In this document: one piece after another, positions 20,789 through 58,840 of the stretch | Layout of the letters: every line of letters starts with the position of its first letter | Numbering within the stretch: the stretch's first letter is position 1 | Virus record (IMG/VR): IMGVR_UViG_3300045988_177309 | Coordinates: 96,170 to 160,169 of that record | Origin: a virus | Strand: one strand, 5' to 3' | Length of the DNA: 64,000 nt | Program-made: the position numbers and the translations under genes | Notes under the pieces: generated by a model | Told to the model about the DNA's origin: nothing | Databases searched by the model: none | Seen by the model: only the letters and a program-made list of their open reading frames with translations

Positions 20789-22174
20789 TTATTCTTCTAT
20801 TTGTGAACGCTTATCAATTTCTTCAAATGTTTCAATGAACTTTTGGATTTCTGTTTGAGATTGTTTCTCTTCTTGGGCAATTTGCTTTATAGCATCTATA
20901 ATTCCATGATCTTTATACCATTGTATTAAACAGCGAGTTTTTGCTTTGAACATTTTACAAACTGAATGTAGAGGCATAAAAGGCTCATCACCATATTCAT
21001 ATTGAGCGCCAAAGCATCCTCTAATACAACTATTAACATTCCAACAAGTATCACAACCATGATGAGTTTTTCTTTGATTAGAAAGCAAAATTTTAGTTGC
21101 TATTACTGGATTGTTAGCTTCTATATCAATTATTTCATTATTTTTTGTAATAAATTTTCCATACAAAAATTCAGGATATGCAGTGCGATGACAAGGAGCA
21201 ATGGAAAGATCTCCCAATCTTACTGTAAGTTGATAAGCTACACTACAAGTAGGAAATTGAGTTGCATCTAAAAGCAGAAAATTGGTATATCCATTTCGTT
21301 CTTCGTTTAAACCTAAAGACATTTTTGCAAATTTTCTAGGATCGCTATCATATCGATGTTCAAAATGATAATCACAATAAAATTTTAAAAATTCTTGATA
21401 GTGTGAAATCGCTTCATCAGTCCAATCATCATTTCTAACCTCTAATGTCATTACTTGCTGCAATACATTAAAATCATATTGTTCACACATATCAACAAAC
21501 CACTTATAGTTTTCAATCCATCTATCAACTGAACATGCGGCAATCATAGGATGAGCGCAAAATCCATTTTTTTTCATAAATTGAAATGATTTATGATAAA
21601 AATTCATATCTCGTTTATGGTATATTTTTTGAGGACGAGAAAAATCTTCAATAATATAACCGTCGATAGATGCACTTAGCGCCAGTCGTATATTATAATT
21701 TTTGTTAAAATCATCAATATAATTTTGTATTTTTTCAGTCATTTCTTGGCTATGAATGAAAGAAAAATTAGTGGGAACAATGATTTCTTCTAACTCGTTT
21801 AATCCTTGTTCTTTATATTTTTTAATTATATCTAACACATTAAAAAATATCTGAGTGCCTACAATTTCTCCACTAAATATATCAATATGTCTTAAATATG
21901 GCCAATTTTTTACAGCGTATTTTAATAATATATCAAGATTATTAAGAATATTTTTTTCATTACGCAATTCAGCAGGATAAAGTTTATCGCCATATCGATT
22001 TAAATAACAATATTCACATTTTTGATTACACTCAGAAGTTACATATAATTCTAAAGAACTAACACGAGAGCCGCCATTTAAATCTGATGAACAATTTTTA
22101 TCACTCCATCCAGAGAAAAAAGCTGTATCAAGAATAAATTTTAAGAGTTCATTATTTTCACTTTTAAAAGACAT
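20789..22174 (-). CDS. radical SAM / SPASM-domain enzyme A1
   Basis: CxxxCxxC motif (SECNQKCEYC) plus a C-terminal Cys cluster (CHRTAYPEF...GCDTCWNVNSCIRGCFG). Paralog of 48375-49856 and 55609-57006. Confidence 0.85.
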   Translation of the reverse strand: MSFKSENNELLKFILDTAFFSGWSDKNCSSDLNGGSRVSSLELYVTSECNQKCEYCYLNRYGDKLYPAELRNEKNILNNLDILLKYAVKNWPYLRHIDIFSGEIVGTQIFFNVLDIIKKYKEQGLNELEEIIVPTNFSFIHSQEMTEKIQNYIDDFNKNYNIRLALSASIDGYIIEDFSRPQKIYHKRDMNFYHKSFQFMKKNGFCAHPMIAACSVDRWIENYKWFVDMCEQYDFNVLQQVMTLEVRNDDWTDEAISHYQEFLKFYCDYHFEHRYDSDPRKFAKMSLGLNEERNGYTNFLLLDATQFPTCSVAYQLTVRLGDLSIAPCHRTAYPEFLYGKFITKNNEIIDIEANNPVIATKILLSNQRKTHHGCDTCWNVNSCIRGCFGAQYEYGDEPFMPLHSVCKMFKAKTRCLIQWYKDHGIIDAIKQIAQEEKQSQTEIQKFIETFEEIDKRSQIEE

Positions 22175-22177
22175 GTA

Positions 22178-22474
22178 TTAAACTTGCTCCTCTTTACGAT
22201 AAAATGTTAAAAATTCATAAACGGCATTATTTTCATTTTTAATTATAGTATTATATACAGTATGGTCAATGCTATAAGGAATATCATTTATTATTAATAT
22301 AAAATCATGAATCCCATATACCTCTTCTCGCATAATATTAATAATATTTCTTTTATTATCATTTTTTATATAAGAAAATACTATTTTAGAATCCTCAATT
22401 GTTTGCAAACATTTTTCTGGAATATTGTCATGAGAATGTTCTTTTTTTCCATCAATAATATAACAAGTTTTCAT
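22178..22474 (-). CDS. hypothetical protein (98 aa) between the rSAM genes
   Basis: Track ORF, tightly packed. Possibly a RiPP accessory/recognition protein. Confidence 0.5.
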   Translation of the reverse strand: MKTCYIIDGKKEHSHDNIPEKCLQTIEDSKIVFSYIKNDNKRNIINIMREEVYGIHDFILIINDIPYSIDHTVYNTIIKNENNAVYEFLTFYRKEEQV

Positions 22475-57006: not shown

Positions 57007-58249
57007 TATCTTTCATCCAATCATAAAATTCAAACAATCCATTACAAAATAATTTTATATTATCATTCCAAAAGGTAAACATAGAACCAGTGGTGCGCAA
57101 ATTCCAATAATAACATGCATGAAGATTGATAAGATATTGCGCATGTCGGAACCTCACGATCTCATTATCCTTGTATACAGGAGAAATTAGGCCAGCTTGC
57201 GCCAAATCATACATTTGACTCATAATAAAAGTCAACTCTGATGTTCTGAGGTCTTGTGCCACATATTTTATAATGTAATCATGTTCTTTGCTAAGATATT
57301 TACTTTTCAATAATTGTTTATATTCTTCTGGGTCATTTTCTTTTAACCATTCAAGATTGACCTCATTATCATCCATAAACCCTGCGGGGCAAGGCGCTAA
57401 AGTGCCATCATATTTAAATAACAGTTGTCTTGTCATATGGCCGCAATAATTGGAAGGGTCAGTAAAAGATTTTTCTACCAAACACAAAGGGACATTGGGC
57501 AAACCATGTAAATATAAATTATAAGCTCCAAGCGCAAACTGTCTACCATCTTCTTGTGTATAATGGGTGGGAGAGGTCGTAGTAGGATAAATCATAGATT
57601 TTTCAATGCGCAAAAAGACGTTTTTATTTAATGAAAAAATTTCAAAAAATGTGTTTAAATCTTGGACGTGTTTTAAATATTCTTGATATTTTTCCGTATC
57701 GGTACAAAGCTGAAGATAAAAGGCCCAAGGTAATGTTGCTTTTAAATTAATTGATATAGTTAAATTATTTAAACACGTTTTATTTAAAGCAAGAATAAAA
57801 TGCTTAAGGTTTTCTTTTATTTCTATTGGATCAACCCCACGAGTAATTTTATTAAATATCCCATCATAAGAAATTTGAATGGATAAATTTAAATGTCGAA
57901 CATAATTATTAAAAAATTTAATAAAATCTATTTGCTGATCAAAAGTAGAAAAATTTGTTGAATATGAAATTTTATTTATATTTGGGAAATTATATAATAT
58001 ATGATCAATTAGAGATTCTTCTTTATTAAAATATAAAGTAGGTTCTCCGCCCCAAAAATCAAGAGCATCAAAATCTTTTACATTATAATGTAAAGAATGA
58101 ATAGTATTTATAATATTGTTAAAAAAACTACCATCTTCTAATGATTGTAAAAGAATTTTATCCTGTTTTTGATAAGCAGGATTTTTATGTAAATAGCAAT
58201 ATGAACATTTTTGATTGCATGAATTAGACGTTATTAAACTTAAAATCAT
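56987..58249 (-). CDS. radical SAM enzyme B3
   Basis: CxxxCxxC motif (SCNQKCSYCY). Its ATG abuts the P3 TAA. Confidence 0.85.
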   Translation of the reverse strand: MILSLITSNSCNQKCSYCYLHKNPAYQKQDKILLQSLEDGSFFNNIINTIHSLHYNVKDFDALDFWGGEPTLYFNKEESLIDHILYNFPNINKISYSTNFSTFDQQIDFIKFFNNYVRHLNLSIQISYDGIFNKITRGVDPIEIKENLKHFILALNKTCLNNLTISINLKATLPWAFYLQLCTDTEKYQEYLKHVQDLNTFFEIFSLNKNVFLRIEKSMIYPTTTSPTHYTQEDGRQFALGAYNLYLHGLPNVPLCLVEKSFTDPSNYCGHMTRQLLFKYDGTLAPCPAGFMDDNEVNLEWLKENDPEEYKQLLKSKYLSKEHDYIIKYVAQDLRTSELTFIMSQMYDLAQAGLISPVYKDNEIVRFRHAQYLINLHACYYWNLRTTGSMFTFWNDNIKLFCNGLFEFYDWMKDNGTISN

Positions 58250-58840
58250 TTATGAGTAATCCACTCCCCAAGTACAGCTATGTTTTCCATTAGGAAAAAG
58301 AAAATCTGAATACCATTTTCCAGTACCAACACATTCCGTGTTTCTTATATTTTGATTATTTTGATAACGTTCATCATTATAATTCGCACTATTATCATGT
58401 GCATTACATGTATAAGTAGGACTATATCCCGCGTGATGATTGGTATAAGCGGAAGGCTCTCCTTCCATTTTGCTTATCATATCAATAACATTATCATATT
58501 CATTAGCATTAATTAAATCATCAACCAAAGGTATCTCTAAATTATATATATCATCTTTGCTTATTTTATCAGATAAAAAAGCACTTGTTTGCAATTTAAG
58601 TAAATAATTTTTTAATAAATTATGAGGACTTTCTGTATTACTCGCGTTTTCACCTTCACCGACTGTTTGTGCTGAAACAATCTCAGTCTTAAAGGGAGTG
58701 CCGAGTTGTGCTCGGGCCGTAGAACCAGCATCATTGCCCGCATAGTGAGCCGCGCGCAGTTTTTCAAGTCTTTTAAATATATCATTAAAATTATTCGCGT
58801 CGAAATCATAATCTCGATTTGGATAGTTTTTCTAAGCCAT
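58250..58840 (-). CDS. precursor-like protein P3 (about 196 aa): conserved motif IFKRLEKLRAAHYAGND, Cys/His/Tyr/Asn-rich C-terminus; TAG as codon 3
   Basis: Track ORF 58250-58594 extends upstream to an ATG at 58840 (RBS AAAGGAG). The leader-like region aligns with P2 (HNLLKNYLLKLQTSAFLS vs YTLMKSYLNALRKSVFLT). Confidence 0.65.

Follow-up and report, generated by a model that had tools for sequence, protein, structure and literature searches.

Three gut-phage cassettes pairing a variable-tailed protein with two radical-SAM enzymes resemble RiPP-type maturation systems

The 64,000-nucleotide stretch analyzed here, hereafter the window (positions 96,170 to 160,169 of IMG/VR virus record IMGVR_UViG_3300045988_177309), is part of a roughly 175-kb gut phage and carries three cassettes, all on the minus strand, in which a substrate-like protein, P, is followed by two radical S-adenosylmethionine (rSAM) enzymes, B and A. 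An initial annotation, made from the DNA letters and translated frames, had read this arrangement as a maturation system for peptides that are made on the ribosome and then modified post-translationally (RiPPs) or as a related protein cross-linking system. We checked the nine open reading frames (ORFs) of the three cassettes, and all were borne out in position and strand. They are given below together with the small ORFs of cassette 1, a Peptidase_U32-family protein (C) near cassette 2 and a suppressor tRNA.

24828-25460, minus strand: P1, substrate-like protein, 210 aa with TAG read as Gln; profile match at E 2.7e-6
23834-24815, minus strand: three small ORFs between P1 and B1, found only in this lineage and without family match (the following three lines)
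24369-24815, minus strand: small ORF of 148 aa, cassette 1, between P1 and B1
24055-24372, minus strand: small ORF of 105 aa, cassette 1, between P1 and B1
23834-24058, minus strand: small ORF of 74 aa, cassette 1, between P1 and B1
22480-23805, minus strand: B1, predicted twitch-like radical-SAM enzyme with one auxiliary-cluster Cys triad
22178-22474, minus strand: small lineage-specific ORF of 98 aa between B1 and A1
20789-22174, minus strand: A1, radical-SAM/SPASM enzyme, with CxxxCxxC and a seven-Cys SPASM signature
51170-51796, minus strand: P2, substrate-like protein, 208 aa; N-domain about residues 1-115; tail rich in F, S, H, N and C
49822-51168, minus strand: B2, predicted twitch-like radical-SAM enzyme with Cys triad C290/C308/C414
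48375-49856, minus strand: A2, radical-SAM/SPASM enzyme; C60/C64/C67 and C323, C341, C386, C389, C395, C399, C418
47246-48151, minus strand: C, divergent Peptidase_U32-family protein, predicted TIM barrel, 301 aa, with conserved Cys; about 1 kb downstream of A2
58250-58840, minus strand: P3, substrate-like protein, 196 aa; N-domain about residues 1-135; tail rich in Y, N, H, C and W
56987-58249, minus strand: B3, predicted twitch-like radical-SAM enzyme, above the PF04055 gathering score
55609-57006, minus strand: A3, radical-SAM/SPASM enzyme, with the SPASM Cys set
41669-41743, minus strand: suppressor tRNA with anticodon CUA, recognized by the Rfam tRNA model

The direct coupling of genes proposed in the initial annotation holds for two of the cassettes. 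In cassette 2, the B2 ATG lies 1 nt past the P2 stop and A2 overlaps the end of B2 by 35 nt; in cassette 3, the B3 ATG abuts the P3 stop and A3 overlaps the end of B3 by 20 nt. Cassette 1 departs from this scheme, with four small ORFs interposed. Strong, correctly spaced Shine-Dalgarno sites were found only in front of the P genes and not before B or A, suggesting that translation of B and A is coupled to that of P.

Both enzyme families are paralogous across the three cassettes, as the initial annotation had supposed. The A proteins match one another by BLASTP at E 2e-64 to 3e-147 (31-45% identity) and the B proteins at E 3e-16 to 4e-81. All 29 A and 61 B sequences compared keep the rSAM motif CxxxCxxC, which, with profile matches to solved rSAM enzymes, places both in the PF04055 superfamily; B3 scores 38.5 bits against a gathering threshold of 29.5, and the other A and B proteins of the window reach 16-27 bits, below the threshold (E 5e-6 to 1e-2). 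The SPASM-type cluster ascribed to A is clearly recognizable, since seven further Cys are invariant in the 29 family members and, in A2 numbering (C323, C341, C386-x2-C389-x5-C395-x3-C399, C418), reproduce the canonical seven-Cys signature with its CX2CX5CX3C block, while scores against the SPASM model TIGR04085 (19.9-26.8) fall just under its cutoff of 27. A is thus a radical-SAM/SPASM enzyme with two predicted auxiliary clusters. The partial second cluster noted in B resolves into exactly three conserved Cys (C290, C308 and C414 in B2; 61 members), and the seven-Cys SPASM feature is missing from B. Profile alignment indicates that B and A are homologous through the first two auxiliary-cluster Cys, with B lacking the CX2CX5CX3C block (hhalign 97.8%, E 1.3e-12). 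Because B has only these three extra conserved Cys and is devoid of that block, it looks like a twitch-like paralog of A with one auxiliary cluster.

The closest solved relatives of A by sequence are CteB (5WGG, E 2.5e-9), followed by TigE (8VPO) and ChlB (9GM3); those of B are ChlB (9GM3), TigE (8VPO), CteB (5WGG) and anSME (4K36). Among NCBIfam models, A is best matched by PapB, QhpD, the Nif11-associated rSAM, SCIFF and cobopeptide maturases, and B by HxsB, followed by twitch-rSAM, DynA, YhhB and anSME. The best curated and solved relatives of both enzymes are, accordingly, all peptide or protein maturases, and in these family searches neither A nor B was assigned to a nucleotide- or tRNA-modifying rSAM family. 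Matches to viperin, MoaA and NrdG-type models cover the shared rSAM core only, at 12-35 bits, and rank under the peptide-maturase matches.

A scan of IMG/VR with the A alignment recovered 75 loci, mostly on contigs of 100-200 kb, which together with five loci fetched earlier gave the 80 loci compared here. In 79 of them B directly precedes A, the exception being cut off by the contig end, and of the 68 distinct ORFs found just ahead of B about 55 are P-like. This P-B-A order and its coupling are kept across loci whose proteins are only 20-35% identical. In locus L050, a 791-aa tail-fibre-like protein (968-3343), not P-like, stands directly upstream of B, and the gap between B and A is 1.3 kb. 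We also sought a conserved small ORF flanking P or A among the loci, either resembling a RiPP recognition element (RRE) or a chaperone, and found only lineage-specific ORFs; the small ORFs of cassette 1 and those downstream of A2 and A3 occur in just 3-9 loci.

Searches of 50,697 GenBank phages returned no match to the region by megablast or to A1, A2 and B1 by tblastn (for A1 and B1 even at E 0.01). Among 185,579 species genomes, only 11 loci were detected, all in uncultured metagenome-derived assemblies of very different phyla and none recognizable as a cultured isolate, a scatter typical of mis-binned phage contigs. In all, approximately 90 loci are known to us from these searches, on viral contigs or mis-binned contigs of metagenome-assembled genomes (MAGs), mostly 100-200 kb long, and the data now available place the system on phage-like contigs only. 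The phage of the window itself recurs as contigs of ~174-176 kb in several metagenomes, one of them binned into a Clostridium MAG at 99% identity. Two cassettes are also found on other phage contigs (for example L026/L073 and L040/L068). A2 is 67% and 50% identical to the A proteins of other phages and 45% identical to its own paralog A3, indicating that the three cassettes are old.

The P genes are read correctly only in a recoded genome. In the standard code, P1, P2 and P3 are each broken by TAG, and they are open only when one to three TAG codons per gene are read through: codon 117 in P1 (25110-25112), its sole TAG; codons 33 (51698-51700), 46 (51659-51661) and 208 in P2; and codon 3 in P3 (58832-58834). 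Codon 33 of P2, which falls in a conserved 'GAGQ' sequence, is TAG in the window, CAG in the 96%-identical strain L006 and CAA in the 55%-identical homolog L007. A targeted scan of the window identified a valid tRNA with anticodon CUA (39.5 bits against the Rfam tRNA model). From the TAG/CAG/CAA covariation and this tRNA it follows that TAG encodes Gln in this phage. Genes A, B and C of the window contain no in-frame TAG at all. In the related loci L022 and L047, B holds three to four in-frame stop codons, which disappear under TAG read-through. The TAG of P1 sits exactly at the boundary between N-domain and tail, so that the standard code yields a 116-aa N-domain only and suppression yields full-length P1; the truncated, N-domain-only form is what one database holds. 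In recoded phages, in-frame TAG codons are associated with late genes.

No family match was obtained for P in Pfam, PHROG, NCBIfam or PADLOC and, in particular, no PHROG or Pfam entry for virion structural proteins was hit. Public gene calls had predicted the same P proteins independently, for example P0001, a cluster of 171 member sequences. The initial annotation had connected P1, P2 and P3 through a short leader-like motif at the N-terminus. We found that N-terminal conservation among them is real but that the shared element is a whole N-terminal domain of 110-130 aa and not a short motif. By BLAST, homology between P2 and P3 spans the first ~130 residues (E 3e-13), whereas P1 is similar to neither (E 3.8). 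A profile seeded only from the class-I N-domains of other phages (defined below) and then iterated detects P1 at E 2.7e-6 over residues 1-110, a match obtained before any sequence of the window had entered the model, and finds P2 at E 4e-4 to 3e-3. These matches place all three P proteins of the window in one family, and the N-domain profile detects 52 of the 80 loci. The proposed motif '[LA][RK]xAHY' exists in P2 and P3 (residues ~23-33), where it reads 'LR[RA]AHY' and closes the first helix. The AKAHY of P1 (around residue 101) is not in a homologous position; it corresponds to the conserved junction 'MEAQTHY[TS]R', at the start of the P1-type repeat core 'NTAGT[TS]Y[ST]Q'.

Relatives of P1 are rare. 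An exhaustive search of 1.8 billion representative proteins returned nine matches at E <= 0.001, seven of them genuine; six of the seven have the N-domain, a repeat tail and an 'AGTTYTES' C-terminus, and the seventh is truncated or frameshifted. Homologs of P2 share ~115 well-conserved N-terminal residues, beyond which their tails resist alignment. AlphaFold2, run on P with a five-sequence alignment, predicts helices in the N-domain, though with low confidence, and disorder in the tail (predicted local confidence, pLDDT, below 30). Judged by their motifs, at least two kinds of N-domain exist across the loci. Class I is ~110-130 aa long and has the helix motifs 'SDLxxWYxxLN...' and 'ASDxNxLxxKxNxxKxDxYL'; class II is ~35-40 aa long with 'MxFxW....G..I....I.E[IL]R.NID.I.DN..C'. 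The junction of N-domain and tail is marked by a conserved Cys in both classes ('[VI]KCRN' in class I, 'DNxxC' in class II), which the P proteins of the window do not have. In L078, a single ORF (3433-4752) contains two N-domain-plus-tail modules in tandem.

Across the loci, the ORF upstream of B combines an N-terminal domain with a very polar C-terminal tail 38-456 aa long, so that the predicted substrates are proteins of 130-560 aa and not short peptides. The tails of P1, P2 and P3 are indeed rich in Ser, Thr and Asn and carry Cys, His and aromatic residues, as had been noted at the outset. In 55 tails the median composition is 15% Asn, 16% Ser and 12% Gly; aromatic residues or His are present in every tail (6-42%), and Cys is missing from five. 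Many tails are built of short repeats: 34 of 53 were periodic beyond all 100 shuffles, with periods of 5 or 9 (SNG type) or of 8 or 16 (D/S/Y/H type), examples being KSNGT, DSNARNSYG, CSITCSNKCTAQACGRT (L017) and units of the form Y/H-D/N-S-x. In the window, the P1 tail, which follows an N-domain of residues 1 to ~113, is composed of 11/22-aa 'xNxAGT(S/T)YSx' repeats (period 22/11 above all shuffles) and a central four-Cys module, and the tails of P2 and P3 are not periodic. Conserved C-terminal caps follow the variable repeats in some groups, 'T[VI]IDIxN..' in SNG-type tails and 'AGTTYTES' in the P1 subfamily P0210-P0217; caps or the junction Cys were noted in the class-I tails of L010, L014, L015, L017, L025, L030, L034, L040 and L068. 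The C-x3-[DE] motif used by PapB occurs at chance level (ratio 0.96). We considered N-glycosylation sequons as well and rejected them, N-x-[ST] being enriched only 1.28-fold, which the SNG/NGT repeats explain.

The cores had been described as hypervariable, and the tails were found to differ even between strains. In cassette 3, the window and the sister strain L004 are nearly identical in the N-domain of P3 (99.3%), in B3 (97.9%) and in A3 (98.5%), whereas the P3 tails share 38.5% identity and measure 61 and 90 aa; the tail has been replaced. The contrast points the same way, though less strongly, in other strain pairs (for example, 91% in the N-domain and 77% in the tail). Such pairing of near-identical enzymes with different tails would be possible for RiPP enzymes that are guided by a leader and tolerant of the core. 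A mechanism of the diversity-generating retroelement type is not supported, as no second copy of any tail DNA, and hence no template repeat, is present in the 64-kb window; no reverse transcriptase was found among the window ORFs scanned, a subset of all ORFs.

Two further proteins accompany some of the cassettes. Homologs of C recur in 38 loci and only alongside class-I N-domains (36 of 56 class-I loci, 0 of 18 class-II loci); in the window, cassettes 1 and 3 have none. C of the window has no Pfam match of its own, but 12 of 23 homologs match PF01136, the best at E 2.4e-9. AlphaFold2 confidently folds it as a TIM barrel (pLDDT 92.8), and among solved structures this model comes closest to the U32 peptidase Mk0906 (5D88; E 7e-8, TM-score 0.54-0.64); a search of the C profile against PDB sequences found nothing. 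C190-x3-C194 and C231 are invariant in C, and C55 and C99 nearly so. In most U32 families, a motif of the CX6CX15CX3/4C type ligates a [4Fe-4S] cluster, and the characterized members UbiU/UbiV and RlhA are O2-independent hydroxylases and not proven proteases (PMC6747719). C keeps only the C-x3-C part of that motif, with otherwise different spacing, and probably binds an Fe-S cluster via a variant ligand set. Limited literature searches revealed no other case in which a U32 protein accompanies a pair of peptide-modifying rSAM enzymes. A YcaO gene follows A, directly downstream save for an ORF of ~100 aa, in nine class-I loci, among them L001 (11671-13470), L017, L025, L034, L035, L040 and L079; the window has no YcaO. 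YcaO enzymes activate the peptide backbone in RiPP pathways, and their co-occurrence with these cassettes lends independent support to peptide chemistry.

The window has 32% GC, is coding almost entirely on the minus strand and contains nine tRNAs. Its genes include those for a primase, a DnaB-type helicase, an NAD-ligase, a topoisomerase II, an RNA ligase and a phrog_850 match; the cassettes are located in this replication and auxiliary region and not in a recognizable structural module. An RNA-repair and tRNA module comprises the RNA ligase and the phrog_850 match at 35312-36733 and 41810-43276 (both minus strand) and a tRNA cluster at 44700-45939. phrog_850 is annotated as an RNA-binding protein; an RtcB gene lies at a similar position in L001, where RtcB and an eIF-1a-like gene are near the cassette. 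Just upstream of cassette 2, 53070-53930 (minus strand) encodes a 286-aa protein with an N-terminal signal or lipobox-like sequence and, at its C-terminus, an LPQTG motif, a stretch of hydrophobic residues and several basic ones, which looks like a sortase-anchored cell-wall protein of a phage; together with the strong Shine-Dalgarno sites, it fits a Gram-positive host. Also upstream of cassette 2 is a UPF0489-like protein (52194-52916, minus strand; E 2.5e-5, just below the Pfam cutoff), and downstream of cassette 3, beside a tRNA-Ser, a DUF5662 protein (54708-55265, minus strand; E 8e-32). The largest unannotated ORF of the window (30755-33199, minus strand, 814 aa) has no PHROG match at E <= 0.001 and chance-level NCBIfam matches (E 0.08-0.15). 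A promoter-like 42-nt motif, read on the minus strand as TTGATTTTTATTTAAAAATATAGTATAATATATATATAAAAT, with TTGAtt and TATAAT boxes, recurs at ~20 intergenic sites, often beside terminator-like hairpins (for example 5529-5570, 30685-30726, 43324-43365, 45974-46015, 59220-59261 and 63711-63752). It is missing from 7.9 kb to 30.7 kb, a stretch with cassette 1 and many TAG-containing genes, which may constitute a different temporal class.

We compared the cassettes with known rSAM-dependent pathways. The initial annotation had named the sactipeptide, ranthipeptide and QhpD families, and here every curated threshold failed: PapB-type ranthipeptide (NF047865), 57 bits at best against 340, with C-x3-[DE] at chance; sactipeptide/SCIFF (TIGR03974, NF045574), 16-22 bits against 425, with five of 55 tails free of Cys and no RRE; and QhpD (TIGR03906), 19-34 bits against 453, with no genes for the QHNDH dehydrogenase present and no dehydrogenase subunit among the neighboring-ORF matches (primase, helicase, ligase, topoisomerase, RNA ligase, UPF0489, DUF5662). 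What A shares with CteB/SCIFF, PapB and QhpD is the seven-Cys SPASM architecture. QhpD is a precedent for a protein-sized substrate, as it cross-links the QhpC subunit. Since Cys is not universal in the tails, the thioether of sacti- and ranthipeptides cannot serve as the general reaction here.

The His-Xaa-Ser systems are alike in having two adjacent rSAM enzymes beside a precursor whose core is a short polar repeat of His/aromatic-x-Ser units, and B1 matches HxsB (TIGR03978) at E 1.4e-9. However, its 37 bits compare with a cutoff of 370, HxsC (TIGR03977) reaches 16 against 268, and the precursors are unrelated, so that both enzymes fall outside these families; the cassettes differ further in their 130-560 aa precursors, novel 110-130 aa N-domain, restriction to phage-like contigs and lack of an identified HxsD equivalent. 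Hxs chemistry is itself only putative (PMC9062424). The action of rSAM/SPASM enzymes on repeat-motif precursors has precedents in TvgB/TigE, the cyclophane Aro-Xaa-Asn motif and HxsB/HxsC (PMC9062424, PMC10878394). In TvgB/TigE and the triceptide systems (ChlB, XyeB, YhhB), an rSAM-SPASM enzyme acts on each repeated motif of a leader-plus-core precursor, and TigE (8VPO) and ChlB (9GM3) are among the top solved matches of both A and B. The triceptide models are again missed (YhhB, 27 bits against 445; XyeB, 20 against 450; XyeB, YhhB, GrrM and FxsB at most 27 against 310-450), and the cassettes differ from these repeat-motif RiPPs in that each substrate is served by a pair of paralogous enzymes, the cores are far longer and vary more, and motifs of the TVGG or GYW type are absent. 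Proteusin/NHLP and Nif11-leader RiPPs resemble P in their long (about 80-100 aa), domain-like leaders, hypervariable cores and several precursors per genome. The NHLP and Nif11 leader families were not detected, the P N-domain having no Pfam match at E <= 1, and the Nif11-associated rSAM model TIGR04064, which is among the A matches, scores 28 bits against a cutoff of 519. C resembles the U32 proteins (UbiU/UbiV, RlhA, TrhP and Mk0906, 5D88) in its predicted TIM barrel and in a C-x3-C with further Cys, which recalls the terminal portion of their Fe-S motif.

Phage rSAM enzymes have been described in other settings. Campylobacter phages CP220 and CPt10, large (~175 kb) phages of gut anaerobes or microaerophiles, have many rSAM genes (PMC2853527); these are not detectably of the same family, as tblastn of A1, A2 and B1 matched no GenBank phage. 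Phages also use rSAM enzymes for DNA hypermodification, and these were rejected as relatives because they belong to a different, spore photoproduct lyase-like family (PMC8989533). Limited literature searches yielded no description of the system studied here. It differs from known rSAM/SPASM pathways in its protein-sized predicted substrate, its novel N-domain, the absence of an RRE and the two paralogous enzymes per substrate. It differs further in its common U32 partner, its occurrence on phage-like contigs only, the several cassettes per genome and the turnover of tails between strains.

These comparisons favor the general reading of the initial annotation. Conserved synteny, the nearest relatives of the enzymes, the hypervariable tails and the YcaO and U32 partners all support it, and a conserved N-domain joined to a hypervariable tail next to maturase-like enzymes fits the architecture of a RiPP system. 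We therefore consider it probable, though well short of certain, that the cassettes are RiPP-type maturation systems in which P is the substrate and A and B modify its tail. The helical N-domain of 110-130 aa would serve as a leader-like recognition module and the tail as the core. P would be made from its strong ribosome-binding site and B and A by translational coupling, and A and B would recognize the N-domain independently of an RRE and act on the tail in succession. 5'-Deoxyadenosyl radical chemistry would then introduce covalent modifications at many repeated short tail modules. The most likely products would be intramolecular side-chain cross-links, aromatic/His-to-Cbeta cyclophane-type links and, where Cys is present, thioethers. 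Motifs of the form aromatic/His-x-[ST] and aromatic/His-[ND]-[ST] are enriched in the tails 1.5-fold and 1.9-fold, values that internal repeats inflate and that amount to a lead, not a result. This enrichment, the chance-level occurrence of C-x3-D/E and the Cys-free tails make C-C cyclophane links, of the kind known from triceptides or put forward for Hxs, a better general guess than thioethers. In class-I cassettes, the U32 protein and, in some phages, YcaO may add a step such as anaerobic hydroxylation, cleavage or backbone activation. With recognition placed in the N-domain, the tail would be free to change, which would account for the sharp divergence of tails between near-identical strains and from one cassette of the window to the next. 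Full-length P would depend on the suppressor tRNA of the phage, so that production of the substrate may be gated to the recoded, probably late, phase of infection. Candidate roles for the product are a host- or competitor-directed effector, an anti-defence factor and a hardened surface or virion appendage.

Several observations weigh against this interpretation. A and B remain 5- to 30-fold short of every curated NCBIfam maturase cutoff. Profile matches to solved enzymes revealed no fused RRE in either: TigE, a cyclopropylglycine synthase, has an N-terminal RRE at residues 3-85 (PMC10878394), as does CteB at its N-terminus, but the matches of A and B to both begin past the RRE, and just 4-60 residues precede the Cys motif. 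A discrete RRE protein was sought among the small ORFs flanking P or A and not found, and neither a leader peptidase nor an exporter could be identified. Beyond aromatic residues and His, no reactive residue is common to all tails, and some period-5 'xSNGx' tails are poor in aromatics, which makes one single chemistry for all cassettes doubtful. The structure model of P has an overall pLDDT of only 41. In cassette 1, three ORFs part P1 from B1 and one parts B1 from A1, and the location of the cassettes among replication and RNA-repair genes offers no clue to their role.

The same enzymology could instead serve a structural product. P would be a virion or cell-surface appendage, such as a fibre, whisker or decoration, with the N-domain as its anchor and the tail exposed and possibly receptor-binding, and rSAM cross-links would take the place of disulfides or a hydrophobic core, hardening a very polar repeat in an anaerobic cytoplasm. 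Phage receptor-binding proteins, too, are typified by tail replacement and by a conserved N-terminus that precedes a hypervariable C-terminus; in-frame TAG, associated with late genes, occurs in P but not in A, B or C of the window; some tails, like that of L017 quoted above, resemble Cys- or Thr-ladder solenoid repeats; the caps 'T[VI]IDIxN' and 'AGTTYTES' suggest a defined end structure; and a tail-fibre-like protein is encoded ~5 kb upstream in 12 loci, besides the one directly before B in L050. We nonetheless regard this reading as unlikely, given that P matches no structural family in PHROG or Pfam, that the cassettes of the window lie in a replication, RNA-repair and tRNA region, and that no oligomerization or anchoring domain is recognizable, the N-domain model being of low confidence. 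Another use of the same enzymes would make the tail a multi-copy precursor, its modules cross-linked or oxidized by A, B and the U32 protein and cut out as many copies of a small cyclic peptide or a peptide-derived redox cofactor, by analogy with PQQ, mycofactocin or multi-core RiPP precursors. SPASM enzymes make PQQ and mycofactocin from peptides, modules of 5-24 aa recur in the tails, up to dozens of times, and the conserved junction and C-terminal cap are compatible with processing; the U32-family protein could be a peptidase or an anaerobic hydroxylase (PMC6747719). Yet the P2 and P3 tails are not periodic, repeat units diverge within one tail, most cassettes have no recognizable leader or repeat protease (U32 is absent from 18 of 18 class-II loci and from cassettes 1 and 3), and a cofactor of fixed structure is hard to square with hypervariability between strains, all of which renders this proposal improbable.

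It is more doubtful still that the target of A and B is nucleic acid, tRNA or a metabolite and that P is an unrelated neighbor, for example a disordered decoy or anti-defence protein. The placement of the cassettes among DNA- and RNA-metabolism genes and tRNAs would suit such a function, phage rSAM DNA hypermodification exists (PMC8989533), U32 relatives hydroxylate RNA and quinones (PMC6747719), and A and B have weak generic matches to MoaA, viperin and NrdG-type models. Those matches, however, are confined to the rSAM core and rank below the peptide maturases, and the phage hypermodification enzymes come from another rSAM family. The full seven-Cys SPASM signature with top solved relatives that all modify peptides or proteins, the P-B-A order and coupling conserved at 20-35% identity, and the YcaO partner in nine loci make a substrate other than P very improbable. 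A last possibility is that the P ORFs are chance open frames in AT-rich, low-complexity DNA, seen only when TAG is ignored, as the one to three read-throughs required, the low-complexity tails and the lack of a family match might suggest. This is effectively refuted: the N-domain is conserved at the protein level across 52 loci, TAG aligns with CAG and CAA in homologs, the P genes have well-spaced Shine-Dalgarno sites and a stop that abuts the B start, independent gene callers agree on P (P0001, 171 members), and the rare homologs have the same architecture.

Within the favored interpretation of the cassettes as RiPP-type maturation systems, a more specific proposal can be put forward tentatively, as a possibility we would not yet bet on. 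The cassettes could represent a phage-restricted class of protein-sized substrates in which a helical N-domain not described before guides two paralogous rSAM enzymes, without an RRE, to place many cross-links in an otherwise unstructured repeat tail; the swappable tails would form a diversification module in an arms race, delivering a stapled receptor-binding or anti-defence appendage from an anaerobic cytoplasm under the control of recoding.

Maturation of ribosomal peptides by rSAM/SPASM enzymes is a bacterial natural-product strategy, and the literature searched gave no description of a large, phage-confined family of this kind. If the tails are cross-linked, RiPP chemistry would gain a new enzyme-substrate family in which the enzymes are promiscuous and the cores independent of the leader, possibly with new cross-links on Tyr, His, Asn or Ser-rich repeats. 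The cassettes would also offer a concrete example of how recoding may gate gene expression in gut phages, in that the substrate, and not the enzymes, needs the suppressor tRNA. Finally, it would mean that phages with up to three such cassettes per genome, as in the window, invest heavily in stapled proteins that evolve as fast as receptor-binding proteins.

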